A stretch of 64,000 bases of DNA from Candidatus Omnitrophota bacterium (GCA_903884815.1 CAISGE010000043.1:701-64700); one strand, 5' to 3'; positions 14,454 to 62,166 are shown, counted from the stretch's first letter. A program made the numbers and translations. The notes: generated from the letters alone by a model not told the origin.

Positions 14454-14530
14454 TGTAAGGAGTACGGCGGAAGGCGTACGACGGTTAAACCGCTCGTCCT
14501 GCGCCGTACACCGTACGCTGTACTCCTTAC
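14454..14530. repeat. Heptad-periodic palindromic element, GTACGG-type
   Basis: GTAAGGAGTACGGCGGAAGGCGTACG ... CGCCGTACACCGTACGCTGTACTCCTTAC imperfect hairpin. Confidence 0.6.
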
Positions 14531-14548
14531 CACAAAGCTGGCCAGCCC

Positions 14549-16090
14549 TCAGGAGGACTTACGCGTCAACCTTAAAATCTCTTCTTCTTCATTCTCGGGA
14601 TTCTCGGCGATCAGTTTCCGGATATGTTTTTCTTGTTCCTCGTCAAGCTCCCGGAGAGGCTTCCCGATGTGTTTTTCCAGAAGGGCGATGTCCTTCGGCG
14701 CGTCATAATCCTTGCCCGTCTTCATCAGCTCCCGGAGATAGCTCCGGAACTCCGCCGGATATTCGTCCATCAAGAAGTGCACCAGTCCCCAGCTCTGGGC
14801 ATAGCCTAAAAGCGTGTAACTCGGGTCCTGGAGTTTGCGGATCCCTGCGCCGTTCTTGATACTCAGCAGATACTGCAGCGGCATCAGGCTGTGCCCCGCC
14901 TGGAATTCTTCCTTCAGAGACGTCAGTCTTTCTTTATTGATCCCCCCGATGGGATCCGTCGAAACATATTCGGCAAGCCCCTCGGAGAGCCAAGCCCCCC
15001 GGTAAACGCTCCCGGAATCGATCCCGAGCAGATCAAAGAGCTGGTGCCCTCCCTCATGCCGGATGGTCTCCATCGTGCGCTCGCGCGCCCAGCTTTCAAC
15101 CCGTATACGGTCCGCTTCGATCTTGAGCTGGACCTTCTCTACTGCGTCGTAGAAGGCCCATTTCCCGGAAGAGGCGCCGCCGACATAAAGCTCCGCTTTG
15201 GTTTTGGCATCCCCGATCTTTTTTTCAAAATACTCGGCACGACCGATGAAAAAACGGATCATGTCGACCTCTTTGACGTTGTAGAGTACGAGGAATTTTT
15301 TGTCAGGCATGTAGAACCCCGCCATATTGGTCCCTTTGGGAAGACCCGCGAATTTCAAGAAGTCATCATAGGAGCCGAAGATCAGGACGCCGAGCGCGGG
15401 CGCCGGCTTTTCCGTATCGATCAGATCCAGGAACTTCATTGAAAATTCGGCGCAGAAATTCCGGAGCGTTTTCAGGTAAAAAACAAGGTCGGATGAATCG
15501 ACCGTCGAAATAATGTAGTAGGGCGGTTCCTTAAGAGAGTACTTGAAATTCAGGCTGCGAAGCTCTTTAAAGTCTTTGTCCAGGAGATCGTCCGGAGGAG
15601 GCGGCCAAAGCTCGATCTTTTCCACCTTGTCCGCGGCAAACCCGAAGGAAATGCTGCCTCCTCCGTCGACGGCCTGCTTGAGATAAAAGGTTCCTCCGTC
15701 TGCCGAGATCTTATTTCCCGAAGCGATGCGCCCGTCCTTAAGGTAGATCCTCGGATAAGGCGCTTCTTTTTCCGAAGGAGCGTAAGCGGGTTGGATGCCG
15801 TCGGCGGTCTTGACCAGCGTTTCACCGCGACGCACCTCGGCTACGTCATTTGTGGGAAATCCGATCTCGCCGCCTTTAATGCGGATCGTCACGCGGCCCG
15901 CGCTCTCATCAACGATGACACCCTGGATCATACTGCCGTTCTTCAGGATCAAGGTGTCTTTGGCATCTGTCGCCGCGACCTTTTCCGGCGCTTTTTTCAA
16001 CGGCGCGGTCTTTCCCTTGCAGGAGATCGCGAGGGGTAAAAAACAGAGCAGGAAAACAATAGGATAAATTTTTATTTTTAATGCCGTCAC
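14549..16090 (-). CDS. Putative lipoprotein with HExxH (HEGGH) metallopeptidase-like motif
   Basis: Lipoprotein signal (LAISCKG). HEGGHQLF motif. No firm family assignment. Confidence 0.5.
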   Translation of the reverse strand: MTALKIKIYPIVFLLCFLPLAISCKGKTAPLKKAPEKVAATDAKDTLILKNGSMIQGVIVDESAGRVTIRIKGGEIGFPTNDVAEVRRGETLVKTADGIQPAYAPSEKEAPYPRIYLKDGRIASGNKISADGGTFYLKQAVDGGGSISFGFAADKVEKIELWPPPPDDLLDKDFKELRSLNFKYSLKEPPYYIISTVDSSDLVFYLKTLRNFCAEFSMKFLDLIDTEKPAPALGVLIFGSYDDFLKFAGLPKGTNMAGFYMPDKKFLVLYNVKEVDMIRFFIGRAEYFEKKIGDAKTKAELYVGGASSGKWAFYDAVEKVQLKIEADRIRVESWARERTMETIRHEGGHQLFDLLGIDSGSVYRGAWLSEGLAEYVSTDPIGGINKERLTSLKEEFQAGHSLMPLQYLLSIKNGAGIRKLQDPSYTLLGYAQSWGLVHFLMDEYPAEFRSYLRELMKTGKDYDAPKDIALLEKHIGKPLRELDEEQEKHIRKLIAENPENEEEEILRLTRKSS

Positions 16091-16235
16091 AAAACCTCCG
16101 TGCAGTCGTTGTTCACCAGCCGCCCTGAGATTCCACTCAGAGTACCGGCCGCATTTGACAAAAGGGGATGTGGGTGTAGAAACCGCATTCCATGTCGAAG
16201 GTTATAAACAATCCGTTGTACCGTGGCAAGCCTTT

Positions 16236-16307
16236 CGTAAGGCGTACGGTGTACGGGGTACGGCGAAAACTTTTTCCTCCGTACTCAGAACGCCGTACGC
16301 CTTATCG
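16236..16307. repeat. Heptad-periodic palindromic element, GTACGG-type
   Basis: CGTAAGGCGTACGGTGTACGGGGTACGG ... CCGTACGCCTTATCG. Confidence 0.6.
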
Positions 16308-16364
16308 CAAAACTGGCATTCTTCTTGCTACGTGCGTTATAATCTCACAAACCATGAGGCACAA

Positions 16365-16835
16365 ATGATCATCATCTCCGATGCTTTGCTTAACATTCTG
16401 GAAAAGCGGGAATTCGTCTCGATCGCCACGGTTTCCCCGGGCGGCCAACCGAACTCCGTCCCGAAATTCTTTTTTCGCGCCAAAGGCTCGTTCCTTTACC
16501 TGATCGATCATGTCATGGGAAGGACCGTCGAGAATCTCCGAACCAATCCCCTTTGCTCGATCTCTTTCATGGACCTGAACACCCTCGAAGGCTATCGCTT
16601 CAACGGAAAAGCCCGGCTGATCTCGGGCGGAAAAAGCTTCGACGCGATCCTGAAGGAATGGAAGAATCGCCTGATCAAGCTCTCCACGGACCGCGTCATC
16701 GCGGCCGTCACGACAGGCAGGAAAAGCGGTCACTACGAACTGGAGATTTCCGAAAGATTCGTCGTCCTCAAGATCAAAGTAGAGACCATCATCAAGATCG
16801 GCCGTAAAGGGGACGTCTGGCAAGAGACCTCCTGA
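16365..16835 (+). CDS. Pyridoxamine 5'-phosphate oxidase family protein (FMN-binding split barrel)
   Basis: Start moved to MIIISDALL. The upstream part of the drawn ORF is the repeat element. PNPOx-like fold motifs. Confidence 0.55.
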   Translation: MIIISDALLNILEKREFVSIATVSPGGQPNSVPKFFFRAKGSFLYLIDHVMGRTVENLRTNPLCSISFMDLNTLEGYRFNGKARLISGGKSFDAILKEWKNRLIKLSTDRVIAAVTTGRKSGHYELEISERFVVLKIKVETIIKIGRKGDVWQETS

Positions 16836-17000
16836 TTTTTTTGCCTTTTCCTGCTATAATGATCTCCGTTTCGTGCCCCTCCCGCCGATGAAGCGATCTC
16901 GAAAGATCCTCTCGTAAGCGGCTCCAAGGTTTCCCCAGACGAAACCCCTTTTGACATCGCGACGTGTCTTTTACCCTATTTTTTTAAAGGAGGCCTTTTC

Positions 17001-18746: not shown

Positions 18747-18755
18747 GTGCTCTGC

Positions 18756-18794
18756 CCTTCTAATTCCCGGAATTGAATTCCCGGAATTAGAAGG
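18756..18794. promoter_or_regulatory. 39-bp near-perfect palindrome containing two AATTCCCGGAATT units
   Basis: CCTTCTAATTCCCGGAATT-G-AATTCCCGGAATTAGAAGG. Lies just downstream of the SulP stop and about 55 nt upstream of the permease start. Confidence 0.45.
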
Positions 18795-18848
18795 GTTGTG
18801 AGAAATCGCTTTGACAAACTTTCGGGCCTCATGGCAAGATAGCATCCC

Positions 18849-20426
<1,578 letters not shown>

Positions 20427-20609
20427 AACTCCAAAAACCAAGATACAAGAACCAAGTAAATTCCAAAAACTAATAATCAAACGGCCAGTTTGGATATTGG
20501 GATTTGGCGATTGGGGATTGTTTGGTTATTGTTTCTTGGAGTTTGGTTATTTGAGAACGTCTCGCAATGAGCGTTCGAAGGAATGTTTGGAAAAGGAATC
20601 GACTGGGGC

Positions 20610-21855: not shown

Positions 21856-21930
21856 CTCGGGAAACGGGGAACGGGTAACGGAGAACGAAAAAGATATTAC
21901 ATTCCCCGTTTACCGACGGACGTTCCCCGG
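21856..21930. repeat. Heptad-periodic palindromic element, GGGAAC/AACGG-type
   Basis: GGGAAACGGGGAACGGGTAACGGAGAACG ... CCCCGTTTACCGACGGACGTTCCCC. Confidence 0.6.
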
Positions 21931-22002: not shown

Positions 22003-22034
22003 AATTCCCGGCCTTTCGCGAAAGACCGGGAATT
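22003..22034. promoter_or_regulatory. Inverted repeat AATTCCCGG-N14-CCGGGAATT immediately upstream of the MFS start codon
   Basis: Shares the AATTCCCGG half-site with the 18756-18794 palindrome. Confidence 0.45.
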
Positions 22035-24077: not shown

Positions 24078-25145
24078 ATGAGAAAAGTGATACTGGGTAT
24101 ACTCATCAGCCTGATAGCATTCGGAACTGCGGAGGGTTATTCCATGGAAAAAGATGCCAAGAAGCCGGCCGTTTCAAAAGGGGCTCAATGCGCCCTTCCC
24201 ACAAGCGACGCTGAACTCCGGAAGCTCCTCACGCCCGAACAGTATCGCGTCATGCGTGAAAATGGCACGGAAGCGCCTTTCGTCAATGACCTCTGGAACA
24301 ATCACAAGCCCGGAATCTATGTCGACAGGATCACCGGCGAGCCTCTTTTCAGCTCTGTCGATAAATTTGATTCCGGCACCGGTTGGCCGAGCTTCATCCG
24401 CCCCATTGAAAAAGATGCCGTCACCGAAAAGGAAGACACCACTCACGGCATGGTCCGCGTCGAGGCTCGGTCGAAAAAAGGAAACTCCCATCTCGGTCAC
24501 GTCTTCCCCGATGGCCCAAAGCCGACGGGGCTCCGTTATTGCATTAATTCTGCGTCGCTGCGCTTCGTGCCTGTCGCAAACCTTGAAAAAGAAGGCTACC
24601 GAATGTATCTGACGCTCTTCGGAAAAGATCCCGAGAAAAAGAATGCGGCGGTGACCTCAAAAACAGAAACCGCCACCTTCGCCGCGGGGTGCTTCTGGGG
24701 CTCGGAGTACGCTTTCCGAAAGATCCCGGGCGTCCTCAAAACCACCGTGGGATATACCGGTGGCCACACGAAGGACCCGACCTATGAACAGGTCTGCTCC
24801 CACACGACCGGCCACGCCGAAGCCGTTCAAGTCGAATTCGATCCCGCGAAAGTATCCTACGAAAAGCTCCTGGAAACTTTTTGGGCGATGCATGATCCGA
24901 CCACCGTGAACCGCCAGGGGCCGGATATCGGGGATCAATATCGCTCCGCGGTCTTTTTTAACTCTCCGGAACAGGAAAAGGCGGCGTTGGCGCTTAAGAG
25001 CAAACTGGAAAAGTCCGAAAAGTTCAAACGGCCGGTCGTCACCGAGATTACCGCCGCACCGCGATTTTATCCCGCCGAGGAGTATCACCAGCAGTATTTC
25101 GAAAAAACCGGACAGCGGCCGCAGTGCCATCTCCCCAAAAGCTGA
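24078..25145 (+). CDS. msrAB: Bifunctional peptide methionine sulfoxide reductase MsrB-MsrA with signal peptide
   Basis: MsrB motifs ([16 protein letters not shown]) are followed by MsrA (AGCFWGSE). N-terminal signal [16 protein letters not shown]. Confidence 0.85.
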
Positions 25146-25330
25146 CCATAGACCATCGACTAAAGACCAAAGCAAAAATATCCGGCAATATTCTTGTGGC
25201 TAGTCGCTAGTCGTTAGTCATCGCTCTTCGGCGCCGCTTCTTGATAAAAATTCGGGCGGTTCGTAGAGGAATAACGTATAATCCCTTCACTTCCACCATG
25301 CAGCATTCATTCTAAAATTAAGGAGAGATC

Positions 25331-29661: not shown

Positions 29662-29690
29662 GAGGGAAACGGCTAACGGGAAACAGGGAA
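29662..29690. repeat. Heptad-periodic element, GGGAAC/AACGG-type
   Basis: GGGAAACGGCTAACGGGAAACAGGGAA. Confidence 0.5.
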
Positions 29691-29764
29691 TGCAGCGCTT
29701 TTACGCTACCCGTTCCACGTCCGCCGATCCCCTGGAAATAAAAGGCGGTCGCCTTTTTATTTTC

Positions 29765-31943: not shown

Positions 31944-31996
31944 TCGGGGAACGGGGAACGAATCGTTAGCCGTTCCCTGGGGATCGTTCCCCGTCG
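31944..31996. repeat. Heptad-periodic palindromic element, GGGAAC/AACGG-type, overlapping the 3' end of the HI0933-like gene
   Basis: CGGGGAACGGGGAACGAATCGTTAGCCGTTCCCTGGGGATCGTTCCCCGTCGG. Confidence 0.6.
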
Positions 31997-33186
31997 GAGC
32001 TTTTAGCTCCGGCTACCGCGCCGCTGGCCCAGGCCCAGGCAAGATTGTAGCCGCCCCGCCGTCCCTGAACATCGAGAATTTCCCCCGCGAAATAAAGACC
32101 TTTTTTAAGGCGGGATTCCAGCGTCTCCGGGTCCACATCTTCCAACCGTATCCCCCCCGCCGTGAACTCCGCTTCATTCCAACCGCGTGTCCCGATCACT
32201 TTAAATTCCTTATGCTTGAGCAGGCGGGCGATCGCCGCCGCATCGGAATCTTGCAAAGTCCCGCGAAGAAGTCCTGACATTTTATGAGGCAGCAGCCCTT
32301 CCACGAGATTCTCCCGGTGGATCCCTCTCTCCAATTTCCCGGACAGCTCTGCCACAAGCTCTTTCTCTTCCATGAACGGGACAAGGTCCACCGTCACCGT
32401 GACATTCGATATGTGATCGCGATTGACGGCAACCGAGATCTCATCGCTCACGTCGAGTACCGCCGTCCCGGAAAGTCCGTACTGTGTAAAAAGGAGTTCC
32501 CCCGTCGCTGTGCGGATCTCATTTCCCTGAATGCGACTCGTCACCGCGGCCCGGACCTTCTGCCCCTGAAGCGCATGACACCACGGATCTTTCACGATAA
32601 GAGCCACGGTGCTTGGCACCGGTTCCAGGATCTTGTGACCCAACGCCGCCGCGAGGGTGTAACCGTTGCCGTCGGCTCCGAGCGCGGGGTAGGATTTGCC
32701 GCCGGCACACAGGATCACTTTGCGTCCCGTCTCCGCTTCCCCGCTTCTTGCGCGAACTTCAAAACCATTCTTGGCAGGACGGACACTCTGGATCTCACAG
32801 CCAAGATCAAGCACCACCTTGAGCCGTTCCAGTTCCATCTCAAGGACTTTCAGCACCGACGCGGCCTGATTGGTCACCGGAAAGACGCGACCGGACTCAT
32901 CCGCGTAAACGGCAAGCCCGAGTTCTTTGAAAAATTGAAGCATAGCGTCTTTTCCAAACTGCTCTAGGACCGAACGAACCAAGGCTTGACCCGCGGGATT
33001 GTAAAAAGAGGCGTCGAGGGTTTCGTTCAAAAGGTTGCAGCGGCCGGCGCCGGTGACGAGGAGTTTCTTCCCGAGCTTCGGCATCTTTTCACAAAGGAGC
33101 ACAGACGCCCCCTGGCGCTTCGCGGTGATCGCCGCCATGATCCCGGCGGCACCTCCACCGATCACGATCACATCATACGGTGTCAT
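31966..33186 (-). CDS. HI0933-like (YhiN/aminoacetone oxidase family) NAD(P)/FAD-dependent oxidoreductase
   Basis: YDVIVIGGGAAGIMAA Rossmann motif. 406 aa. The C-terminal tail is encoded by the repeat element. Confidence 0.8.
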   Translation of the reverse strand: MTPYDVIVIGGGAAGIMAAITAKRQGASVLLCEKMPKLGKKLLVTGAGRCNLLNETLDASFYNPAGQALVRSVLEQFGKDAMLQFFKELGLAVYADESGRVFPVTNQAASVLKVLEMELERLKVVLDLGCEIQSVRPAKNGFEVRARSGEAETGRKVILCAGGKSYPALGADGNGYTLAAALGHKILEPVPSTVALIVKDPWCHALQGQKVRAAVTSRIQGNEIRTATGELLFTQYGLSGTAVLDVSDEISVAVNRDHISNVTVTVDLVPFMEEKELVAELSGKLERGIHRENLVEGLLPHKMSGLLRGTLQDSDAAAIARLLKHKEFKVIGTRGWNEAEFTAGGIRLEDVDPETLESRLKKGLYFAGEILDVQGRRGGYNLAWAWASGAVAGAKSSDGERSPGNG

Positions 33187-35081: not shown

Positions 35082-35195
35082 CGTAAGGCGTACGGTGTAC
35101 GGAGTAATGAGTTGAGTACGGGGTACGGGGTACGGCGCAAACACCTCTCCAACAAGAACGCTAGTCCCCGTACGCGTTACTCCTTACTCCGTCCT
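35082..35195. repeat. Heptad-periodic palindromic element, GTACGG-type, immediately downstream of the giant-gene stop
   Basis: CGTAAGGCGTACGGTGTACGG ... GTACGGGGTACGGGGTACGGCG ... CCCCGTACGCGTTACTCCTTACTCCG. Confidence 0.6.
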
Positions 35196-56100: not shown

Positions 56101-58655
56101 GCGATCATGGTGGGCGACAGAAAGTCCGTCACCATGTCTCCCGGGCCGGAAATAGCGTGCCAAACACTTACAATCTTAGTATTTTTCTTGTAGTTTTGGA
56201 GCATTTCCCCGGAATGACTCCCCTCTCCGAAAAGCAAAATGCCTATGCTCTGAAAGAACTTCGCGAGGGCATAAGCGCTGTCGATCGTAACGGGCGCGTC
56301 GTTCAGAGGATGGGTTAGAAGGATCTTGTCTCCATCCAGCCGGATCGCTATACGGCCCGCCGAGGGATGAAGTTTCTTGAAGAGGCCCGGACAGTAAAGA
56401 GCCTTGTAATCAAGGGGATGCAGGCTGTGACTTTTTCTTTGATACTCCCGCCGGTAACTTTTTTTGTTGGCCTCCATATAAAAAACGCTCCGGCGGGGAC
56501 GAACTATGATCTCCTCATCCGTAACCGTAACGACCTCCAGCCATTCTGGCCTTTCGGGATCTAAAATAATCCCGTCCCCGGGCTCTAGATCCTGGCCTTC
56601 ATACAGAAAAGCCCGTGGAACTTTGCCGTCGATCTTGATCCCCCGCTTTTTTTCCGAGGGGCGAGACTTAGCGTTTTCTTCAGCCTCTTCTTGGACAGCA
56701 GGATTCGCCGTCCGATTCTCCGCGCGGGCAAAGCTAAGTTGAGTACCGTTCCACGCAAGACCGAGGGCCGCCAACCTGGGAGCGATCAACTCACCGACAG
56801 GCACCTTGTTCCGGCCGCCGACCGTTCGAAGGGCTTCCTGGAAAATTCCAAGAAGATGGCCGGCGATGACGGGCCCAAGGTCTTTGCGTAGATCCGGGAG
56901 CAAAGCGAAGGAAGGAGCACGAACGCTTGAATCTTGATCGCGCGACGAATCGGACCCCGGTTTTGGCGTTGCGCGCTGCGCTCTGCGCGCTGCGCCCGGA
57001 GGTGGGGTGATACCCGTCATCACGCTGAGGTAATTCGCATTCGATTCCAGATTCGTGATACGCGGCGCGACGCGGACATAAGAAATTCCGTTTTTCTTAA
57101 AGAGTTCCGCGAGACCTTCCGAATGGAATCCGCCAGTCACGAGAACCGCATTCGCCTGCTTCAGCGATTTCATTTGCGCGAACATGTTCCTGAAGAGTGC
57201 CTGTTCCCGCTTTTCAGCAGTCTCATAGAAGCTCAACGCGCAACGCGCAACGGTCAACGTTGGACTCGCGAGCTTTTCACGTTGTGCGTTGTGCGTTGTG
57301 CGTTGCTCTAGCAATTCCTGATACTCTTCCCGCGAAAGTTCCAGGCTGAAAAGTTTCTTCAGCGACCGGTACTCTTTATACCTTTCGATCAGGGCTTTCT
57401 CCACATCGGAAGTCGCGAGCTTCGCGAGAATCTGATCGTTTAATTTTTCGACCTCCTTGAAAAGGTCCGGCGCTTGCAACTCGTTTGAAAGGATCGCGAT
57501 CCCGATACGACGGGTCAGATTCGGATAATCTTCAAAACGGAAACCGAGCGGCGCGGCCTTGGAATAGAAATCCTCCATGAGAGAGCGAATGTCTCTACCG
57601 CGAGGTAAGGCGGAAGGCGTACGGCGTGCGGCGCCCGACGCTTCGTCTTGTAGAATATCTGACAGATGATAGCTCTCCGGATCTAACCGATGGGCTAAAA
57701 TCCAGGATATAAGCTTTTGTTTTTCCTCCCCATACTCCGTACCCCGTACTTCGTACGCCGTTTTTTCAAGTGCTTTTAATTTAAAAAATCGAACTAATTG
57801 CGGCCAATCGTATTGTTCCCGGGCATTCGTAAGGTCCAGCGCGAGATGCTCCTCCGCGACTTTCGGAAGTTGTTCCAGCCCTGCGAAAGGCTCGGCCGCA
57901 ACCTCACTGTGAAAAGCCCAATCGCGGAAGAATTTTTTGAGTCCGAGATTGAAGGCCACGGAGGCTTCATCGGTGATCTTCTGGCGGATCTCTTTGAGGG
58001 CGGCATCGGTTTGCGGCTTTGCCGCATAAACAGCGCGAAACTGCTCGAGGTTTTCTTTGTAGAGCTTGAGGTCTTCGACGCCGTAAACGCGTCCGGCGGA
58101 AGGCGAACGGCGAGCGAGGCTTTCTTTTGCGCCGTACTCCGTACTCCTTACTCCGTACGAATCAGCAAGATCCAGCTCCACACCGCCGATCAGTCCCCGG
58201 CGATTCATTTCTTCAAGAAGTTGGCGATTCAGTTTCGCGTCATCAAAAAAATGGAGGTTTGCAGGATCAAGGGGTTTCCAGGCACCCTCGAGATAAACCG
58301 TATTGAGACCGTAGGCCTTTCGCAGGTGGGCGAGAATACGTTCAATGTTTTCCTGCCCCTCGGGCTGCCCGTGAGCTTCTTCCACGTGGACAATCACGGG
58401 TACGGCGGAAGGCGTACGGTGTACCGCGTCACTGCTTTGAGGTGATACCTCATGATAGACTTCTCGGATGATTCCAAGTTCAGAAGGGATTGAGATCTTC
58501 TCCTCTAAGGAAGTTAGAGAAATCTCCGGACTCCGTACGCCGTACGCCGTACTCAGAGTAGGAGTAGCCTGGACAGTCGTCGTCGTAAAGCAGATCAGCG
58601 TGCAAACAGCAAACGCACGCAAAAAGTGAGAGAACTCTCCCTTAGTTTGACGCAT
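35199..58655 (-). CDS. Giant multidomain protein (7,818 aa). It has a signal peptide, a UPF1-like SF1 helicase, a GlnD/GlnE-like nucleotidyltransferase with HD and ACT domains, internal TM helices, a MetF-like domain, a PglC-like phosphoglycosyl transferase and tandem SAM-MTase-like units.
   Basis: One uninterrupted ORF of 23,457 nt in a 58%-GC background. Multiple unambiguous enzyme motifs are all in the same frame (see the sub-features below). There is a plausible promoter and an N-terminal Sec signal. Confidence 0.75.
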   Translation of the reverse strand: MRQTKGEFSHFLRAFAVCTLICFTTTTVQATPTLSTAYGVRSPEISLTSLEEKISIPSELGIIREVYHEVSPQSSDAVHRTPSAVPVIVHVEEAHGQPEGQENIERILAHLRKAYGLNTVYLEGAWKPLDPANLHFFDDAKLNRQLLEEMNRRGLIGGVELDLADSYGVRSTEYGAKESLARRSPSAGRVYGVEDLKLYKENLEQFRAVYAAKPQTDAALKEIRQKITDEASVAFNLGLKKFFRDWAFHSEVAAEPFAGLEQLPKVAEEHLALDLTNAREQYDWPQLVRFFKLKALEKTAYEVRGTEYGEEKQKLISWILAHRLDPESYHLSDILQDEASGAARRTPSALPRGRDIRSLMEDFYSKAAPLGFRFEDYPNLTRRIGIAILSNELQAPDLFKEVEKLNDQILAKLATSDVEKALIERYKEYRSLKKLFSLELSREEYQELLEQRTTHNAQREKLASPTLTVARCALSFYETAEKREQALFRNMFAQMKSLKQANAVLVTGGFHSEGLAELFKKNGISYVRVAPRITNLESNANYLSVMTGITPPPGAARRAQRATPKPGSDSSRDQDSSVRAPSFALLPDLRKDLGPVIAGHLLGIFQEALRTVGGRNKVPVGELIAPRLAALGLAWNGTQLSFARAENRTANPAVQEEAEENAKSRPSEKKRGIKIDGKVPRAFLYEGQDLEPGDGIILDPERPEWLEVVTVTDEEIIVRPRRSVFYMEANKKSYRREYQRKSHSLHPLDYKALYCPGLFKKLHPSAGRIAIRLDGDKILLTHPLNDAPVTIDSAYALAKFFQSIGILLFGEGSHSGEMLQNYKKNTKIVSVWHAISGPGDMVTDFLSPTMIARALREHNFDVIFETAESEAWWEDFQEKYGKEIHEGHSTLGDSLALFRVTHPVRAEARKESGAEPGARSAGKLLNKFAGQSLVSLGTTTSRSEGRIDLDGELTEEEFRAYFISKSEKYFQEPFARSVFDRIRVGHGNSVNEWPTPVMGAILTELEEACEVHFRRKGIRSIEDITLPADIGVARVQMLNLFLLPGWEEMRGQYREGIEQRMKAFRLYGYTPELTEHGFATLAGNYRKIGERERSLFFSIAALSLILDGHDGTLDAGLIGLLTELLGKLSMDFSLDSRRIPATEELLRFSLETLADMEETLQKVQAEARETGESMRRKILAYYKDKPHDLDPERPEETLINVVRGSRTQSQFVNALWLSVHHTEASLDRAIQLSEGSGGGVNDDVAILFPAYLVKADRLRRAGNMPAALEYLAKAKGFLDSGRFSHFMGVMAGQRQGDEGEALAAEARAEAAWQKTAEMMVFYYERLIEDDFSAETAMEMRRRYQDIRGISGVWFATRIAESYYAEWLLEQGKEAEATEVLTGIFSDLVKNGKTGVKGSSRYGSFSQFFHPGMPFTPFEDPASPESGHYVSRSDAAIVSILVDPYRWPEDPKVLAEMLIYAVRNNPEVIEKVLVAWADLGMEGEFNVDHEPSLKAALSILLQEQGLEIWLAALHFCVQIQDPALNADMMAFLIEQAKEADHRNVMAFVTDSNAVIRALFSGKVRPRSTQAINDWITAFMRQHKRSLKTLVYESFAARLVASGYKPESLLELLQEAVEQETQDKVLHDRLSKRKESTLAASSYLFYFIESISSLSRVMALNPENKASVAFMENILSFLEGLLEGGPAAFEVLFSPAEKKASPEAKDQLLLQVYSYLSEMLFELGAKAASHPLKERFEKVHQALLDRFFVLYFRQLGRRNVGSEDLENAAKKLELDPQEILEAYAHRAEYLFRAQKWEELQKWMVPWIRLLKVVPRLAAGDSSERSGKHSVALRSIAGVNTGLIDILLMSNPELLGVFFPESGEQAPVAPSPESLNLALLARHNPERERFYAAMKPIALSDPSTPDIDSFKAQMINSLFLFANEIRSQEPELAEKALGVAIAYFRETAAASRNPVTEAEFQAGSRASHFSTDKPFARNQQAYFRLCLALAREDNDAVKMALTELHRADEEAGDGATFPAMDTALVEAVFTVQEGGSRKAALDILEKLFIFQENAAAANGTRAPPVYDRIEILLNRFLNLPPAYKETAISLLAELIAEGRAETRIPVDSVDNRFFVLNALMSRVASPEWNMALFRVMDSKWADGSPAERSAWVDVFTEMAPSSVPAIGAVLFCDRILRDDVSKQWQAPVSAFRKELETQLTPQGYYELAEQQFKDAKYAECGQSLETARRNGASGDLALSIQELAAKRKRVAERKRQLQKDLAAQDKDLDSLERSITAILKDNSEDREALDLKEKVQGAREIEAQALEKFAEEDYSGALEKLQEFPESLTGNKTRKRRKALETWIGALSTVRGSLERSELEKAEGQLENSLREMQKNWSQGSPLAEHDTVQHLRDEIQDLRSTLQGLEHAISGNGTYSAVFENAKRLAVFPNRAVRAAQLVLRLAEEAFHSGVAGKATDFKKAYYYAVFVAELEREFPVIADEGRAARNLASHAMAQHWLPELTDQGFLISAMVKARQEREEENIRESNGRPIEIKFSKIELHPEKRMFTVYDLKLGRAGATGGETVWDDLGKPEKFGWPEDTFRIRNPSKKEPMQPFFRLVKRGVEHGRSFMQFELPETHKGFDYLNALLTGEVSKGGILTRTSARALERQEDYLADYVLNLTTSTRLAKGNGLLTTQATTGNALVDYALGLQIGVAAQEKETDFSAFEKMEAEYAESGKALDPAQRAAVKETLRPAGSPGNYGSASPIVLVQGPPGTGKTKVIEWITKLASEGGQRVVVLSQSNAGADNVAKKLLEDGLPFVRVGSNEDAIDHEILPSWEARGPELDLMLKQRKSGGGSLLIGTINGFSGDKEIRTRPELLNTDVLIIDEASLATLPEFFFAFAQLQGVKKIIVVGDPDQLPAFGISDEDRRFITKYLNQAKKLGRNIFAGNELKTRFGQRTLLEILDKEKRNAHKKSYLEKALDLFYPRELALAGFVSFAPYFFLNIQRRSGSWIVRLINYFYRKSGRPKLMAGREITGMVIDDNTHGRFGFHDENANSEDHDGGKKNPGEADRVITHIHWLMNKKHLGAEDIGVISPYADQVELIRDRLLATSKAHDYLVRLAAGQELSNDEWIVFEELFGSEALEARVDYRADSWLMANHPGYRGLRGQQKGGVRREKVRGIKDSLRRIRRGEGDRRTQAAEILRFLGLEGSFPAAYEIEVSLLDVTTVNKSQGSEYKAVIVSWVRSNEDDNVGFLADPVEGRNRINVAISRAKDYLIMVWDRDTFERCKDPDVHEWVMDYNDVMREFSGSGPRDRGRHRRRSETRNTTLPDDQLDWISREGALFKAQREKILKSNTPWEEKSVALADLADHYVAKVAEEFKRYIHRNYPDTPPMLFVATGSYGRREVAPHSDYDGLVVVRTHADVESLKDHFTPGGFVYESSRVLGGAWDLFALEEFENPVTVTDLGLTKEFNAASSASFAARMQATHRTTAPEIQREAMTQLLFAREVSSPGLPFAELETALKNHLDQPVKRARVLRQILDAWDEHRQEEGYFSGLAEREPDLKWGAGGLKDFDVASWVVRLFFRDENDAIDQTSGHNIAFLTREEFEEARKAAAHIREIRWKLQALPTAEEGGSSDRLGLEQQPALAEWMYRETGAGEDARVVLFLEDLHRAQRTLYLYASTILDRALQKTTPLQYDFLPDGDDEKFPFPGVEKAKRFGETITENGPVLIPEDRKEAVLTLHPGQSIRPDDILEIFKFAAEHDCALTGELLDGIKNARAAFLEHLGRDEAFRAQARAAFAAILRAKGPIGDLLLQAHLLGLLEEIVPGYRELNHRVVQDFKYEHTLDVQSINYARILDGLRGKAEVTGPMAGASRLSIPEDWLAPVRAAMLVDALIDQKIPGIDPSKVFALIGLDPAEAGKARWLIEKRTALFSLMQNSGLYYPDEFLEFQRDNLSDAAGRPDFHRWQVLVALTLTQIETFQKGRTEIYLNRLKPFLEITEEEFMDPERMKTYYREHVPLDQLPGFAEGLEDDEVRVDWEATGIPDTWVLRVASRSRLDRPGRLFRIATVLASGKQGQFSVLSLLPQHFAKGAITVNAMIVRRNFLDQALEEDPKFSENLTERFRSALLMEDAGKVRSGYRNKPFFRSPALMPLPPTKVLVRHYGHSNFVYLETPDGIGALADIAHILLMHGLLLGPRSTIDTVGYSRKVGLQIQDTIHVLRPDGSQPSSREMKDLAEDLEFAFSHETITDEVLNEVLVRVDSRHRLRANRSNMRVVDEDSFSKAARAWSKNRPKDKDLGRKQPDPGMEAAYLITQQLPLLQKAFGITIRGDEVVLRPEEIIPNEAGQIEREWLNMGDQRLVEAARQFLHEKGLNEEVLGKGWKEALQTLSEVDERGRPAQGEFRPEFESALLKARLFIDLLYEIGSGILETPIAETAREIIDPDPGKTFDPERVMDLFIRSAETKKPVSAFNQIAIMAAAGTVASDSPEARELWKGFMRFLRVQTDISDAVYAMHQTGLLSLMSPEFAELDNIYDDNAYWHYYRVSNHALYAFDNFEELTFGDLPPNGAPSQVLGAVGFHESAKDPEWLARMRLGVLFHDVGKQLILTKFQVSHQIRGAITLLPQILERAGLLTQFAADEFRTFAFLQFIIWYHQHGNSIIQNFRELIESALFDWQARLAMSAEEGLDPRSLIRAFAAITLADRLGTHPDRNAELMGRAPEAWVNPIILERTREFFLELQAFFESGFNALSREKILRRRDEKNRAYTEELLDQLKRYYPSEAALAEARKQLGKFAALKGYDYLRRFRPDMIQEHLVLFNKLEEMPVDRQGIPLVSVLHSEEGYSRADQHFLHIAVGVPFDEPGILARLTGVFAGFRLSIHDADVTGFDGKTFDHFMVYQVGQEGEEMGVSDDFVAALTKALREIVVEKDYMPKLRALFAAQGRPYEFDTFEDSGGPASLKFLPSEKQGNVRLLVHMPNGLGRMHVVTRVLDELKINIDDVPVETRSFGAEDIFEMKNGDGTPLSEHFQAGIRSAFEELLSLKKIREADILRAIAAAEATRSEMRYKIDYKDLSPDQKKEAKALGVALMPKDGNGKVIGRRSALDGVIRTLRAYEKVLHGGQPLEKGRSKAIVSVREALAGQGLSGKTAEAERRLIEDAIIVVQWVVDQREFQHRSEVEKMISQMASDEESPDMLDDGPPFMELSKEKLRKILASLEILATLERVDASVINKALDRKHGNRPPAEMPSLPDDKTFFLMGIELIQARLLAEQLIERMRREAIEFTLQHCRELVWNGQPIPSDYHVREAITEAGILFEDNEALFRVLGKTIDFVRERGEKRSEVRQAIQPGTIPGNPRAEFREFSGAIRSELRKEDLAGAVIAERPDGLIIADLSKITDEAVLAKVFASLEAIEAKDHGRDGFWMTEKILRETLSYGEPVWAMFDADMKLDGILFFTPWGHEKEGTRETYKKVVLQALVTRPDGPDQDWVFFRDTFFAAMQEKGADSVFFWTRQTPTWKKYFQGRTDKGVILDAQLTPSRFPRDSRLQDSYWVRLEPLDRSESRDGQAQSAAISEADFNPYASSRPEGTLPLVSGVTRLKLALSFATAFVNLPIVLQLHQDSAWLMMNPVFWIQDWWFQIGFTVAGDILLALGAIYMPQIREVLPHKPLQPTRLKPVQVGVARRSENRDKPKQLTSEEIKRLNPEYMFAENFFDQYEDMRQWLAEKPGRKLVTLVSHGRSGSNEFEYHQDHSMFSPLTIFGRLQVAALVAFFKKMKITFEAYLSSDLERDYQTVSPLARRAGKKPEVLESLREVKLDWFGGYPYRWVASTRAKMFRIFRRDPAKYEIEGYSGSQAEKDKALLFLKEIPTRPEKTFLIGVHRLDFLMDLMNMLEIPSSQFDAVYQHFERGNLKNAAMTVLTYDPEDGKWKLWVKTDIDYLPEGRRQSTRNPVVRFFERIFFWFQVLERLVFKALGYRSVAGPLADYWPDSRLWHKPSPGQLDVALDKAEAFIEANNAAKETDASADTVSSGAGADAARSDAEASRAESRIQKINQSATSPGVTANKVPVGELIAPAVTPAVPGDSLRFETRNRLGRLSERVSEKKFTVTAELAAPRLDDPASMKKYLAERDAFMQLYGAGWIDGTSTRSAPEVPAWVEDAALMMRGKKLRKDSFPYPRGFQEFMRRRGEKIENSQDPRAVKIADMWSEVGRFEKIREMPLPGTDFVATVALQTQSAFDVLDIIRDLGNRPQTKALLFMGGGHPLRKTPLAQFLVQTDWAIKEAVKMKKNGEIPANVQIWATWNPHAGDALQDLTRKKKAGATVIYTQPPLFPGEFRKTWDAAQAAGLMDNLQFKIGMTEISSAKNLRFWCHLMGVDPYRDPEAAKSLDAWQRAEAFKVKQPEAFGKFRDSYNRGRFEKALLLPGVTGIHLFPMSHWKNVEQYLANAGFSPAGRVEKDKGSRAESRIQKINQSATSPGVTANKVPVGELIASTATRAAPGDSPERAEMREPADGQQDPNILATFVMDRGTSGTGSWAKKSEGLRPITGSRIFDVLAGLSLAILFSPVILIISGLIWLFSGSPVILKQQRVGYRGKLFMVYKLRTLEKNKEEITLPFGSFSIPFGAILRRSGLDELPQLFNIIEGSMTFFGPRPLLKGETTRQHLDAILAFRKPGLFSYFKAQFPLGASTQKGFLASSYVRPSIAYNHYERVHWSVAFQIKILFLTVWNVCRGFWLMARGVREDLPLAEELLKRIGIFPEVKNVLKTERSEASPAQPIAVPAAPGDSPGRAETRLPRGNMKLRLAESPTTPQKQWQRVYDAMAPGQNSVVPDDYDQFLKLNLWGPLFRELPPGAKVVGLASGRAVPETWARKIVQGAQVYAVDFIDPFRDDPESKPQGVTFIQADMEQASKAAGIPHDADLVMSLFGVEYGDVIKVLRETADILKEGGLFCFFMHHPYSAIINSAREDLEAIKKARETGVTRIADWAPVPDREEILERLETLRKRIEPIVESVRRTRDGNDNDAAGFFDQYLRAIDALLAGVRRPDYRPDEDLKLLLGALPATLDDQERFLQERVRVAEKMDPEYLRELVLTARDLGFQITEKDVSGAKMNGSVMGLYFRGRLIRKAAPPQAVPAKSYDPQRDWQSLYDVMPSGEHSPVWPELERALMKSVWEPLFRKLPSDAKVVGLASGRGKAEAGVLAITPGAQVHAVDYVDPFRNTPGSKPKGVTFVQAAMERASEAPGVPKDAADLVMSQYGVEYGDVPAVLRQAAIILKEGGRFCFFMHHPGSAITQATKYELEMLGPLDEAGLGRIADWDPVPTRPQIIQRLEVVEGKIQSAITDVRKFVGTEDNVTLEFFKQLLNAIQALITIARGGDGEIPLDRLKGLLLLQAMVFKNHEEMLRERVAVSEKLTPEYVSRLAATARSLGFKIPEPDVAYSGETILGWRFVGELVKKPASPDGAATKQDESSRRQALAAAVSKWQNILRGMTNEIWFDKGGYASFELMAEEIAPIEAMRPFTDADDFYERIFLNSNIFKDALDPQKGKALEYQSQAALWLTVKVFGHPPAEGRSTPSTGNPVSREERRSEHRLSDAEIWVAHEAAKDVFAAPRVLEIGREMFMKTMDQLMPSAHAMTRSEKRVSVEKLLTDPTKLESGRQQVSVIFGAIPQKEDSVLKRLVEVMAKSKLQFQVVVPGALPADLEQFHGALIRKVQETRGIQGGVDVKVVSEETAITGFAKQNSENALVYDLREDNGEALRVLEPAVSISNQGKRMLFVFSDKGMTLTQKSYGLIAAINTLLEQKPEEQNRLHGVQSLSVIFKLAENLQKFAEAARSLASAA
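36400..37345 (-). other. Giant protein: SAM-methyltransferase-like unit 2 (tandem duplicate of unit 1)
   Basis: DAKVVGLASGRGKAE, ADLVMSQYGVEYGD, ILKEGGRFCFFMHHP. DNA also similar: 36861-36890 versus 37849-37878. Confidence 0.5.
37350..38300 (-). other. Giant protein: SAM-methyltransferase-like unit 1
   Basis: GAKVVGLASGRAVPE (motif I-like), ADLVMSLFGVEYGD, ILKEGGLFCFFMHHP. Confidence 0.5.
38600..39080 (-). other. Giant protein: PglC-like monotopic phosphoglycosyl transferase (bacterial sugar transferase) domain
   Basis: RIFDVLAGLSLAILFSPVILIISGL re-entrant helix, YKLRTL, LRRSGLDELPQLFNIIEGSMTFFGPRP (catalytic DE dyad), FRKPGL. Near-colinear with C. jejuni PglC. Confidence 0.75.
39209..39330. 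repeat. Intragenic repeat encoding linker RAESRIQKINQSATSPGVTANKVPVGELIA (copy 1)
   Basis: About 90 nt essentially identical to 40459-40580. Core GCGATCAACTCACCGACAGGCACCTTGTTGGCAGTCACCCCGGGGGATGTTGCGGATTGATT. Confidence 0.7.
39340..40440 (-). other. Giant protein: MetF/methylenetetrahydrofolate-reductase-like TIM-barrel domain (tentative)
   Basis: Order-preserving resemblance to MetF: FTVTAELAAPR / LYGAG / VIYTQPPLF / GIHLFPMSH versus VSFEFFPPR / VTYGA / AITQFFFD / DFHFYTLNR. Weak, so tentative. Confidence 0.35.
40459..40580. repeat. Intragenic linker repeat (copy 2). A partial third copy lies at 56775-56805.
   Basis: Read directly. Confidence 0.7.
41700..41960 (-). other. Giant protein: internal cluster of 2-3 transmembrane helices
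   Basis: LKLALSFATAFVNLPIVLQL ... VFWIQDWWFQIGFTVAGDILLALGAIYM. Confidence 0.5.
43690..44190 (-). other. Giant protein: tandem ACT domains
   Basis: HIAVGVPFDEPGILARLTGVFAGFRLSIHDADV and VRLLVHMPNGLGRMHVVTRVLDELKINIDDV. Confidence 0.5.
44500..45100 (-). other. Giant protein: HD phosphohydrolase domain
   Basis: MRLGVLFHDVGKQ (H...HD...K metal-binding signature). Confidence 0.6.
46000..46260 (-). other. Giant protein: ACT-like domain
   Basis: VLVRHYGHSNFVYLETPDGIGALADIAHILLMHGLLLG. Confidence 0.4.
47950..48600 (-). other. Giant protein: GlnD/GlnE-like nucleotidyltransferase domain
   Basis: LFVATGSYGRREVAPHSDYDGLVV (G-S-x9-D-x-D NTase motif) and downstream DLKWGAGGLKDFD. Confidence 0.7.
48880..50450 (-). 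other. Giant protein: UPF1-like superfamily 1 helicase domain
   Basis: Walker A LVQGPPGTGKT, Walker B LIIDEAS, VVGDPDQLP, ISPYADQV, VNKSQGSEYKAVIV, NVAISRAK. Confidence 0.8.
51480..52000 (-). other. Giant protein: long coiled-coil segment
   Basis: Heptad-like charged repeats RKRVAERKRQLQKDLAAQDKDLDSLERS ... LEKAEGQLENSLREMQ. Confidence 0.45.
57244..57316. repeat. Heptad-periodic palindromic element, CAACGCG/GTTGTGCG-type, in-frame inside the giant gene
   Basis: CAACGCG CAACGCG CAACGG ... GTTGTGC GTTGTGC GTTGTGC GTTGC. The arms pair with G.U wobbles only on the plus-strand transcript. Confidence 0.55.
57603..57765. repeat. GTACGG-type palindromic element (arms 57603-57645 and 57730-57765), in-frame inside the giant gene
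   Basis: AAGGCGGAAGGCGTACGGCGTGCGG ... CATACTCCGTACCCCGTACTTCGTACGCCG. Confidence 0.55.
58088..58158. repeat. GTACGG-type palindromic element, in-frame inside the giant gene (encodes SYGVRSTEYGAK / ARRSPSAGR)
   Basis: Read directly. Confidence 0.55.
58397..58562. repeat. GTACGG-type palindromic element (arms 58397-58427 and 58530-58562), in-frame inside the giant gene
   Basis: GGGTACGGCGGAAGGCGTACGGTGTACCGCG ... CTCCGTACGCCGTACGCCGTACTCAGAGTAGG. Confidence 0.55.
58566..58655 (-). other. Giant protein: N-terminal Sec signal peptide (MRQTKGEFSHFLRAFAVCTLICFTTTTVQA)
   Basis: Positive n-region, hydrophobic core, VQA cleavage-like site. Confidence 0.55.
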
Positions 58656-58732: not shown

Positions 58733-58770
58733 ATTTTTATAAATGTTATTTATAAAATAATAGACTTCTT

Positions 58771-58896: not shown

Positions 58897-58940
58897 TCCC
58901 GCTCTTCGAGGCGCTTTAATCAACTCTTTTGGAGGCTCGT

Positions 58941-60237: not shown

Positions 60238-60240
60238 ATT

Positions 60241-60382
60241 CTCGTACGGCGAAAGGTGTACGGCGTACAGCGCAGAGTCAAAAGGCCCGGTCTTGATTTT
60301 AAGATCGGGCCTTTTTATTGTTCCAAATATTCTTCATGAACCATTTGATTTTTGCCGTACTCCGTACGCCTTACGCCGTACT
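60241..60382. repeat. GTACGG-type palindromic element whose two arms (60241-60270 and 60348-60382) bracket the sod terminator
   Basis: CGTACGGCGAAAGGTGTACGGCGTACAGCG ... GCCGTACTCCGTACGCCTTACGCCGTAC. Confidence 0.55.
60280..60319. terminator. Rho-independent terminator (GGCCCGGUCUU / AAGAUCGGGCC stem plus U-tract), bidirectional for sod and the TPR gene
   Basis: Read directly. Confidence 0.7.
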
Positions 60383-60872: not shown

Positions 60873-60888
60873 TTTTCATCCATGGTGG

Positions 60889-60963
60889 TTGGGGGAACGG
60901 GAAACGGTGAACGGGTAACGAAAAGGGCTTTTACGTTCAACGTTCCCCTTTAGCCGTTCCCCG
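60889..60963. repeat. Heptad-periodic palindromic element, GGGAAC/AACGG-type
   Basis: GGGGAACGGGAAACGGTGAACGGGTAACG ... CGTTCAACGTTCCCCTTTAGCCGTTCCCC. Confidence 0.6.
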
Positions 60964-60967
60964 GTTA

Positions 60968-61603
60968 TTAGAATTTCATGTAAGGGTTCGTGCGTCTCTC
61001 ATTTCCGATAGTCGAGGAATCCGCATCTCCATAGGCGTGCCCCGGAAAAACCTGCAGAGATCCATCGAGACCGGCAAGACGCTTGAGGCTTTGCATCAAC
61101 TTCTTCTCATCCCCGCCCGGAAGATCGCATCGGCCGCAGGCGCCCACAAAGAGCGTATCGCCCGTCACGAGCTTCTCTCCAACCTGGATGCACTGAGCGC
61201 CTTCCGTGTGGCCGGGCGTGTGAAGAAAGATCATCTCCACGGCCCCAATCTTGAGCGTAAAACCTTCCTTCGTTTCTATGAGCTGTTTCGAGGCAACGTC
61301 CTTCAGGAATTTCGCTTCATTCGCGTGAACATAGATCTTTGCGCCGGTCTTTTCGACGAGGGCCTCGACGCCATTCGCGTGATCAAAATGCGTGTGCGTC
61401 AGGATCCCCGCGACGACCTTCATCCCGTCTTTCTCGGCCTCCTTCAGGATCGCATCCACGTCCCAGGCCGGATCCACCACCGCGCATTCCTTGACCTTCT
61501 TGTCCCCGATCAGGTAGACAAAATTCCCCATATAGCCGACGGAGATCTGCTTGAAATACAAGTCTGGGCTACCCACAACAGCAGCATCCCTTACTCTTCT
61601 CAT
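60968..61603 (-). CDS. MBL-fold metallo-hydrolase (hydroxyacylglutathione hydrolase-like)
   Basis: THTHFDHANG zinc-binding motif. The start as drawn overlaps folA by 35 nt, so the true start is uncertain. Confidence 0.7.
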   Translation of the reverse strand: MRRVRDAAVVGSPDLYFKQISVGYMGNFVYLIGDKKVKECAVVDPAWDVDAILKEAEKDGMKVVAGILTHTHFDHANGVEALVEKTGAKIYVHANEAKFLKDVASKQLIETKEGFTLKIGAVEMIFLHTPGHTEGAQCIQVGEKLVTGDTLFVGACGRCDLPGGDEKKLMQSLKRLAGLDGSLQVFPGHAYGDADSSTIGNERRTNPYMKF

Positions 61604-62057
61604 AATAGATCACCTCAAGCAACGGATCGTCCTGGATTTTGAGTCTTTTCTTCTCGGTGAAAGCGGCCGGAATCTCCGGGTAGAGAACGTCACCCTCGAA
61701 ATCCGCATGGATACGGGTCAGATAGATCGCATCCACACGATCGATGGTGGTCCTGTAAAGCATCGCCCCCCCGATAATGAAGGCGTGTTCGGTCTTGACG
61801 CTTTTCAAAGCCTCGTCCAAGGACGCAAAAAAGGTCTGTCCGGGATAGGGTTTCTGCCCGCTCTGGTCCAAAATGATATTGGTACGACCCGGCAAGGCTT
61901 TGCAACCAAGGCTTTCAAACGTCTTGAGCCCCATGATCACAGTCTGTCCCAAAGTCGTCGCCTTGAAATGCTGAAGATCCTTGGAGAAATGCCACGGGAG
62001 CTGATTCCCCTTCCCGATCACGCGGTTATTCGCCACTGCAACGATATGAAATAACAT
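61569..62057 (-). CDS. folA: Dihydrofolate reductase
   Basis: Start moved to MLFHIVAVANNRVIGKGNQLPW, which has a GGAG RBS. The upstream in-frame extension runs into a repeat element. Confidence 0.8.
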   Translation of the reverse strand: MLFHIVAVANNRVIGKGNQLPWHFSKDLQHFKATTLGQTVIMGLKTFESLGCKALPGRTNIILDQSGQKPYPGQTFFASLDEALKSVKTEHAFIIGGAMLYRTTIDRVDAIYLTRIHADFEGDVLYPEIPAAFTEKKRLKIQDDPLLEVIYYEKSKGCCCCG

Positions 62058-62105
62058 AAGCGGTATAGATTCTCCTTTTCTGTTTTGTGGCCCGAACAAG
62101 TTAAA

Positions 62106-62166
62106 CGAGTACGGCGTCTCGCGTACGGCGCTTTCCCTCCGTACTCTGTACGCCTTACACCGTACG
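62106..62166. repeat. GTACGG-type palindromic element between thyA and folA
   Basis: CGAGTACGGCGTCTCGCGTACGGCG ... CCGTACTCTGTACGCCTTACACCGTACG. Confidence 0.6.

Follow-up and report, generated by a model that had tools for sequence, protein, structure and literature searches.

A stretch of 64,000 nucleotides from Candidatus Omnitrophota bacterium (GCA_903884815.1 CAISGE010000043.1:701-64700), hereafter the window and numbered from its first letter, carries a dispersed family of short inverted-repeat elements whose arms are built from tandem heptamers. Each element is a convergent pair of ~28-nt arms, and each arm comprises ~4 copies of a family-specific heptamer, the families including GTACGGN, GGGAACG, CAACGSN, AGACNNN, CCAAGAN, ATAAGTG, and CCACGAA. 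The best explanation that we can offer, and one to which we would assign about an even chance, is that these are lineage-wide dispersed repeats resembling repetitive extragenic palindromes (REPs) and bacterial interspersed mosaic elements (BIMEs), which belong to the heptameric simple sequence repeat (SSR) class, share the pair architecture known from Xanthomonas, and spread at the DNA level. A first-pass annotation, made from the sequence alone, had proposed that inverted arms built from heptads form a real family, dispersed at the boundaries of genes, and this is borne out: inverted heptamer arms are present at all 14 of the coordinates that it named, and three loci (20426-20544, 25144-25221, and 56966-56997) can be added to its list. 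The analysis covered the window, including its 53-kb core, and ~250 kb of Omnitrophota DNA; other loci are labelled L### and proteins P####.

Enrichment, architecture, and placement of the heptad elements

The excess of tandem repetition in the window is specific to the seven-nucleotide period, with 13 tandem stretches at period 7 as against 0-2 at periods 5, 6, and 8-12, and Tandem Repeats Finder (TRF) delimits ~25 period-7 arrays of roughly 3-5 copies each, which represent at least five heptamer families within the 64 kb. The claim that the heptads exceed the expectation from base composition stands for the most abundant family, as GTACGG occurs 17 times (4.0±2.1 in dinucleotide shuffles) and CCGTAC 22 times (5.0±2.2), with nearly all of these copies lying inside elements; it does not stand for GGAACG and CAACGC, which as single hexamers show no enrichment over dinucleotide shuffles, so that what is unusual about those families is their tandem arrangement alone. 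According to the gene calls, 12 of the ~21 intergenic spacers of the core carry an element, and the element-bearing spacers include those of co-directional, convergent, and divergent gene pairs.

The arrays obey a strict polarity. A convergent partner accompanies 33 of the 41 GTACGG arrays and a divergent neighbour just one, and the purine-rich arm lies 5' in 32 of 36 elements, which belong to at least nine families. Four units make up 26 of the 33 GTACGG arms; the loop-proximal unit is usually GTACGGC, the variant GGAAGGC often stands second or third from the loop, and the unit order GTAAGGC-GGAAGGC-GTACGGC-GTACGGC recurs in several Omnitrophota metagenome-assembled genomes (MAGs). The asymmetry between alpha and beta arms that arises where GGAAGGC occupies one arm only is not significantly associated with the orientation of transcription (9 vs 3). 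The arms themselves are direct heptamer arrays rather than palindromes, and G3 tracts, as read from the sequences, are confined to GGGAACG and absent from GTACGGN, CAACGSN, AGACNNN, and CCAAGAN. A likeness of GGCGGAAGGCGT to the RfaH ops element was considered and rejected on account of the template-strand location of the motif in the giant gene described below.

The spacers between the arms measure 5-97 nt and are unrelated in sequence. No direct repeats flank the 33 elements examined for them, the flanks are unrelated, and no target-site duplication is found; the aligned elements have no conserved loops and their aligned flanks no conserved head of the GTAG type. Three window elements clearly enclose host sequence, namely the coding segments between the arms at the sites that we call S1 and S3 and the terminator between sod and a TPR gene, and the coding segments of S1 and S3 are also present in homologues without arms. 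The elements of the window and their additional arrays are as follows (z, z score of the RNA fold; |, spacer between two genes).

14455-14530: GTACGGN element, arms 14455-14482 and 14503-14530, spacer 20 nt, between DUF1570 and a HemN-like gene, both on the minus strand; -43.8 kcal/mol, z -6.5
16237-16305: GTACGGN element, arms 16237-16264 and 16278-16305, divergent DUF1570/PNPOx spacer; z -7.4
20426-20544: CCAAGAN long imperfect palindrome, convergent amino-acid permease/SDF spacer; z -5.3
21858-21930: GGGAACG element, divergent spacer, its end 8 nt upstream of the SDF start codon; z -3.6
25144-25221: AGACCAN/NTAGTC element, msrAB|ICMT spacer; weak fold, z -1.7
29662-29725: degenerate GGGAACG element, downstream of Fe-ADH and followed by a terminator-like hairpin at 29740-29757; z -1.2
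31944-31992: short GGGAACG element, between convergent trmA-like and HI0933-like genes; z -2.9
33199-33270: CAACGGT/CAACGCG element, in frame as the last ~30 codons of ygiQ; z -1.6
35083-35194: GTACGGN element, left arrays 35083-35110 and 35116-35136, right array 35167-35194, between the end of the giant open reading frame (ORF) and the start of ygiQ; z -2.1
56966-56997: single array of GCGCWGC units within the giant ORF, translated as AARRAQRA and able to pair with the complementary arm at 57231-57252
57229-57310: CAACGCG hairpin, site S4, in frame in the giant ORF, encoding QRTTHNAQRE...TLTVARCA; z -3.4
57605-57763: GTACGGN split pair, site S3, arms 57605-57632 and 57729-57763, enclosing a 96-nt conserved coding segment
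58088-58158: GTACGGN compact element, site S2, in frame in the giant ORF, encoding SYGVRSTEYG...RRSPSAG; z +0.37 (58085-58162)
58400-58552: GTACGGN split pair, site S1, arms 58400-58427 and 58525-58552, enclosing a 97-nt conserved coding segment
60244-60381: GTACGGN split pair, arms 60244-60271 and 60354-60381, enclosing the bidirectional sod/TPR terminator; z -10.7
60892-60962: GGGAACG element, lactB|TPR spacer; z -3.5
62106-62166: GTACGGN element, immediately past the stop codon of thyA in the thyA|DHFR spacer; z -1.8

The statement that the elements bracket genuine terminators is correct for the sod terminator (60244-60381) only, two other elements merely adjoining a terminator-like hairpin. 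The lack of any copy in the low-GC island was also confirmed, in that TRF and a period-7 scan return zero heptad elements in 1-10.5 kb; at the density of the core ~3 would be expected there, and the absence is therefore weak evidence.

This island (1-10500, GC 0.41-0.45 vs 0.53-0.58 in the core) ends at a split tRNA and encodes a large serine recombinase (8771-10279, plus strand), and it looks like an integrated element with the tRNA as its attachment site. The tRNA gene (10195-10545, minus strand) is split at the island boundary by a group I intron (Rfam RF00028, 10265-10485, 51.8 bits), with a GIY-YIG ORF just past it (~10550-10790, minus strand); ARAGORN reports no tRNA in the window, and the exons, read by eye, have the anticodon loop CTGTTAA and would make a tRNA-Asn(GUU). 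A second palindromic motif, which has no heptad periodicity and is built on AATTCCCGG, occupies spacers at 18755-18795 and 22003-22034 (5 copies in the window vs 1.7 expected).

The inverted-repeat build, the length of 60-160 bp, the mostly intergenic location, and the existence of within-genome families would all suit classical MITEs (miniature inverted-repeat transposable elements) or REP doublets forming hairpins (REPINs), in which arm, loop, and arm are copied whole by a transposase of the DDE or RAYT/HUH type, and the insertion at the thyA|DHFR spacer described below adds to this case. Set against it are the missing target-site duplications, the unrelated flanks, and the missing GTAG-type head, together with spacers that are unrelated in both sequence and length and that in at least three cases (S1, S3, and the sod terminator) are pre-existing host sequence. 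Moreover, ORF clustering, in which the ORFs were not screened for transposases and no search for transposases beside the elements was made, shows that beyond syntenic orthologues only the N-terminal domain family of the giant protein recurs across loci. We consider whole-element transposition of this kind very unlikely.

Turnover at orthologous spacers and within reading frames

The comparison with relatives shows that sites persist as their occupants change. The locus L125 is a syntenic relative (amino acid identity 85% for sod, 89% for thyA, 83% for DHFR, 85% for TPR, and 75% for lactB), and L127 is a third relative, which has short empty spacers at all three of the sites compared and a decayed GGGAACG hairpin in its ygiQ tail. 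The window and L125 share an orthologous GGGAACG hairpin in the lactB|TPR spacer (83% nucleotide identity, with a 12-nt indel), which is missing from L127. Between thyA and DHFR the window has a GTACGG element, and L125 has an AGCCNNT heptad hairpin that is unrelated to it; compared with L127, whose spacer there is empty and 31 nt long, L125 shows a clean insertion of ~40 nt. The TPR|sod spacer of the window measures 143 nt with its arms and terminator, as against 1 nt for L125 and 8 nt for L127. In a further locus, L128, ygiQ is flanked by ATAGCYN arrays both at the 3' end and upstream of the start, and AGTCTCN arrays also lie upstream.

The 3' end of ygiQ, whose homologues, like those of the N-terminal domain of the giant ORF, are Candidatus Omnitrophota proteins, shows such turnover as well. 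Its orthologues (~60 from Omnitrophota) share a conserved ...KERQFQRELVQPK, after which come tails that translate different heptad families, at least four in number: QRATHNAQR..LRVDRRPLR from CAACGSN in 13 orthologues, GTMNGERQT..FPVNRFP from GGGAACG in nine, two further types in four each, and short tails in eight. Tails ending in ..DY[DG][ST][VIL], which account for 29 of 70, are an out-of-frame reading of the Shine-Dalgarno (SD) sequence and ATG of the downstream HI0933-like gene, and the stop codon of ygiQ in the window falls in that same SD/ATG region. Thus, ygiQ is indeed read through a CAACGSN hairpin as the earlier account of C-terminal tails held, and its tail copies are absent from orthologues or swapped for other families; the second tail of that account, on the HI0933-like gene, amounts to an overlap of just ~9 codons with the element at 31944-31992. 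In this clade (33173-33290; P0010-P0129) YgiQ matches just the first ~52 positions of DUF3362 and runs on through the intergenic hairpin, and deeper orthologues retain a native ...YKQPKNRGLVLDALRK... continuation.

In-frame copies also lie in the giant ORF (35199-58655, minus strand, 7818 aa), the N-terminus of which consists of a signal/transmembrane (TM) segment followed by a ~550-aa domain with homologues. At the linker sites S1-S4, the arrays are translated as YGVRS/TEYG and RTPSA/RTPYA peptides, and one further array lies downstream; S1 stands just after the signal peptide and starts ~10 codons past the signal/TM helix. The first-pass annotation had counted five copies within the first 1.1 kb, and the true figure is four elements (eight arms) in 1.43 kb plus a single array at 1.66-1.69 kb. 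These in-frame copies are real, and some homologues lack them: S2 is an insertion that P0001 and P0004-P0007 lack, and the homologue in L126 has no arrays at any site and no excess structure. In the homologues of L007, L008, L125, L005, L068, L075, L114, and L032 arrays occur at the same sites, often from other families. At S4 the window has CAACGCG, L007 CCACGAA, and L125 AGACTAG; at S2 the window has GTACGG and L008 GGGACTS; and the two arms of the S1 split pair are alike in each case, being GTACGG in the window and in L008 and AGACTAC in L007. The stretches encoded by heptads fall on segments to which AlphaFold gives low confidence (27-47, 73-82, 169-185, 339-349, and 455-462; pLDDT of the model 78.5). 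The N-terminal domain evolves fast, and the loops in which its in-frame copies lie are predicted to be disordered.

The elements are strongly concentrated in this domain. Five of the 17 window elements and all six arrays of L005 (18.9 kb) lie in it, its family is the largest ORF cluster among the Omnitrophota loci compared (11 loci), and a pattern match falls inside it in four of 18 loci that were fetched by DNA pattern alone. The domain has no Pfam match, PDB sequence match, or significant Foldseek match, its weak and non-significant Foldseek matches being to erythromycin-esterase-like folds, nor is it evidently an enzyme acting on nucleic acids. Precomputed Pfam matches of the giant ORF are to SF1 helicase (AAA_11/AAA_12), GlnD_UR_UTase, His_Phos_1, and Bac_transf. 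A peptide search with a translated hairpin returned only spurious ORFs of 45-109 aa over intergenic arrays. The densest single case is a 2.4-kb metagenome contig (L007, 1-2378) with five heptad pairs from three families, four of them inside a homologue of the N-terminal domain and an ATAAGTG hairpin upstream (86-170). At S3, P0007 carries a duplicated insertion encoding ...SEIATPPKTGLAMTA... (alignment A1, columns 380-470), which looks like a different dispersed repeat, one without heptads, in translated form; if this is right, the S3 loop admits other repeat classes too.

Since seven is not a multiple of three and the arrays cluster towards the 5' end of a gene whose giant product is secreted and evolves fast, gain or loss of a unit could in principle shift the frame and switch that protein on or off. 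We regard such phase variation as highly improbable, given that the units are imperfect and number just 3-5, that most copies are intergenic and lie beside housekeeping genes, and that the assemblies do not vary: three of them agree in their call of the 7818-aa ORF, and L005 equals L006 over 12.2 kb.

Under the reading that we favour, the arms would be DNA-level modules placed in unconstrained DNA, by which we mean intergenic spacers and the codons of disordered loops, and would be repeatedly renewed or overwritten there. Deposit and renewal would explain how different families come to occupy the same spacer or loop with each copy near its family consensus. Copies within ORFs would persist only where the frame stays open and the protein tolerates a loop insertion.

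Pairing, folding, and stop codons

Hairpin formation had been put forward as a defining property of these elements, and the pairing between arms does not bear out selection for it. When 22 GTACGG elements were aligned arm-to-arm and compared with a control in which the 3' arms were re-dealt among elements, 77.9% of cells were paired as against 80.9±0.8% after re-dealing, with all 500 of 500 shuffles at least as high, and no compensatory covariation between the arms was detected (score 0.047 vs 0.075 in shuffles). In a separate permutation test the arms of one element were likewise less complementary than re-shuffled arms. The stems arise because two arrays of the same family face each other, and the pair at the seventh position of the heptad is mostly unpaired (in 12, 17, 19, and 12 of 22 elements); with every seventh position mismatched, the stems are therefore 6-bp blocks parted by 1x1 mismatches. 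The hairpin potential is thus a by-product of facing arrays and is not kept by compensatory evolution.

The same comparison bears on the possibility that the elements are in-situ microsatellites, grown by 7-nt slippage and mirrored through intrastrand template switching (quasi-palindrome correction), with no dispersal at all. Heptad periodicity, the 12-nt indel between orthologous GGGAACG elements, and conserved positions with changing sequences are all compatible with it, as is the over-representation of heptamer SSRs in many bacteria, for which slippage has been proposed (PMC4679880, PMC4692102). Template switching predicts, however, that the arms within an element should be more alike than those of different elements, and the opposite is observed; slippage also sits poorly with a defined, non-homogeneous unit order and a fixed ~4-unit length, with the presence of the same families at many loci and in many genomes, and with elements that are identical across 3-4 independent metagenome assemblies. 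Four metagenome contigs match the window at 99.99% identity, with zero single-nucleotide polymorphisms inside elements. We rate a purely local origin as rather unlikely.

The fold energies are heterogeneous, with four elements having z scores of -10.7, -7.4, -6.5, and -5.3, four lying between -3.6 and -2.9, and six lying above -2.2; the coding copy at S2 folds no better than shuffles (z +0.37). There is no bias toward a sense strand, as top and bottom strands have about equal fold energies and no G-U bias is seen, and no T-run follows the stems, so that they do not qualify as intrinsic terminators. Rfam gives no match to the elements at the gathering threshold across the whole window, and in E-value mode (14.3-35.3 kb and 56.9-62.3 kb) only chance sub-threshold matches. 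The stability of some copies, the conservation of positions across species despite sequence turnover, and the strong hotspot in the giant-protein N-terminal domain, with S1 so close to the signal/TM helix, could nonetheless be taken as signs of selected RNA regulators that act in attenuation, RNase III processing, or ribosome pausing, especially in the 5' region of the giant-gene mRNA. Against such regulators count the missing covariation, strand bias, and Rfam match, the several copies including S2 that fold no better than shuffles, the L126 homologue with neither arrays nor structure, and the geometry at the sod terminator, where each convergent transcript would bear just one arm; the probability that we attach to this reading is slim. 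On the reading of DNA-level spread, the weakest step is any role in mRNA, where the long imperfect stems may serve as generic punctuation of the REP type (for example by protecting 3' ends, insulating cistrons from one another, or coupling their translation) rather than as specific riboregulators.

A second proposed property, the lack of stop codons in all six frames, holds for the idealized units and fails for the real copies. Idealized GTACGGN, GGGAACG, and CAACGCG arrays are open in 6/6 frames; in 17 real elements 46 frames are open, as against 54.2 expected from random core segments of the same length, and tandem AGACTAG and ATAGCTT arrays have stops in all six frames. Because of these figures, freedom from stop codons is neither a property of the class nor the cause of its persistence in reading frames, as had been supposed.

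Relation to known systems and significance

The elements are not peculiar to the window. A scan of GTDB genomes for (GTACGGN)3 returned at least 116 loci, and among the matches listed are the Omnitrophota MAGs JBAYVF01, JBAXGK01, JBDRCT01, and JAZDFE01 and the MAGs CAYMER01 and CAZPCF01, all six of which have the same paired elements with the families GTACGGN, ATAAGTG, AGACTCC, and CAACGCG. Comparable pairs occur in Planctomycetota, Gemmatimonadota, and Thiohalocapsa sp. ML1, a cultured purple sulfur bacterium with convergent heptamer pairs of the families GAGTACG and AAGGGCC at the following positions.

L062: 3236-3300
L080: 5054-5124 and 7527-7747
L120: 39-120 and 1148-1245

A viral origin was considered and rejected, as a scan of viral contigs gave 11 matches, all single arrays and none paired.

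Heptamers have been known since 2007 as the most over-represented class of long SSRs in bacteria, a fact that has remained unexplained. Two published descriptions of Omnitrophota genomes make no mention of hairpins, palindromes, or heptamers. The over-representation of heptamers and the idea of slippage have been reviewed (MacGregor 2015, PMC4679880), and the closest precedent is that of the GGGAATC heptamers of Xanthomonas, which form 70-75 convergent inverted pairs per genome, prefer four units, and are intergenic (Rehm et al. 2015, PMC4692102). These are kept between the same genes with varying length and sequence; their function is not known, and G-quadruplex (G4) formation by the unit GGGNATC has been offered as an explanation (PMC4692102). 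The Omnitrophota elements resemble the Xanthomonas GGGAATC and Nostoc GGGGA(C/T)T repeats (PMC4692102) and the cyanobacterial short tandemly repeated repetitive (STRR) sequences in their 7-nt unit, their ~4 units, and their dispersed, mostly intergenic location; with Xanthomonas they further share convergent pairs in which the purine/G-rich strand comes first on both strands, and their GGGAACG family is two bases from GGGAATC. They differ from the Xanthomonas repeats in having at least five unrelated families per 64 kb and almost all arrays paired, in belonging to a different phylum, and in the frequency of in-frame copies in one protein family. The G-tracts required for a G-quadruplex are found here only as the G3 tracts of GGGAACG; since most families cannot form G-quadruplexes, the four-unit rule is not explicable by G4 here. 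The earlier statement that no described family matches thus needs qualification, in that the architecture is known from Xanthomonas (PMC4692102), whereas the Omnitrophota heptamer families themselves appear undescribed.

Other systems show partial likenesses. With the REP/BIME/REPIN repeats of Proteobacteria the elements have in common short dispersed extragenic inverted pairs, a location in operon spacers, and within-genome families, and both plausibly act as mRNA hairpins; unlike in REPs and REPINs, whose unit is an imperfect palindrome of 20-40 nt with a conserved GTAG-type head, the arm is a tandem array that is neither palindromic nor headed by GTAG, the spacers are arbitrary, and intragenic copies stand in frame. 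The comparison with Rickettsia palindromic elements (RPEs) made in the first-pass annotation is fair as an analogy, both being palindromic in-frame insertions that add loop-like peptides missing from some orthologues. However, RPEs are 100-150 bp long, form a single family, and have no heptad periodicity, whereas the Omnitrophota copies are mostly intergenic and their arms can flank pre-existing coding sequence; judged from the heptad composition, homology to RPEs is implausible. A MITE would be copied as a whole and leave target-site duplications, whereas none flank the 33 elements examined for them, and the spacers are unrelated and sometimes host DNA. Eukaryotic foldback (FB) transposons have inverted arms of short tandem subrepeats, hundreds to thousands of base pairs long, and are associated with a transposase. 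The elements described here are like them, by analogy, in building inverted arms from subrepeats.

Several observations weigh against DNA-level spread of REP/BIME-like repeats. No mobilizing enzyme turned up, no dedicated transposase screen having been made, and no insertion signature was found. Split pairs such as S1 switch the family of both arms and keep the conserved segment between them, a joint switch that ordinary insertion of whole elements does not predict. The hotspot in the 5' region of the giant gene exceeds what permissive DNA alone would lead one to expect and hints at a specific role. Finally, L127 has no elements at most orthologous spacers and they are therefore dispensable in that relative.

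A more speculative proposal, to which we give a small chance, is that the arms are written by a strand-polar, templated process acting at 3' ends, for which an enzyme resembling a reverse transcriptase, a telomerase, or an integrase would be a candidate. A fixed ~28-nt family-specific array would be laid on each strand at two staggered nicks. Such array-writing would explain why the purine-rich strand runs 5'->3' to the centre on both strands, why the spacers are host DNA of 5-100 bp, why split arms switch family jointly, and why the same sites, including the 5' region of the giant gene, are rewritten repeatedly across lineages. If this is true, the elements would represent a DNA-writing system, or a genomic scar, of a new kind.

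Three rules hold across unrelated heptamers, namely arms of ~4 units (~28 nt), purine-first convergent pairing, and a mismatch at every seventh position. As they hold in families that are mostly unable to form G-quadruplexes, the G4 explanation proposed for Xanthomonas is undercut, and the rules point instead to a common, sequence-independent mechanism, be it a generating enzyme or a heptad-reading factor. The pairs in the cultured Thiohalocapsa sp. ML1 make this question experimentally approachable. For Omnitrophota, the elements extend or interrupt ORFs, as in the ygiQ tails and the loops of the giant protein, and they therefore affect gene calling and protein-length statistics in the MAGs of this phylum.

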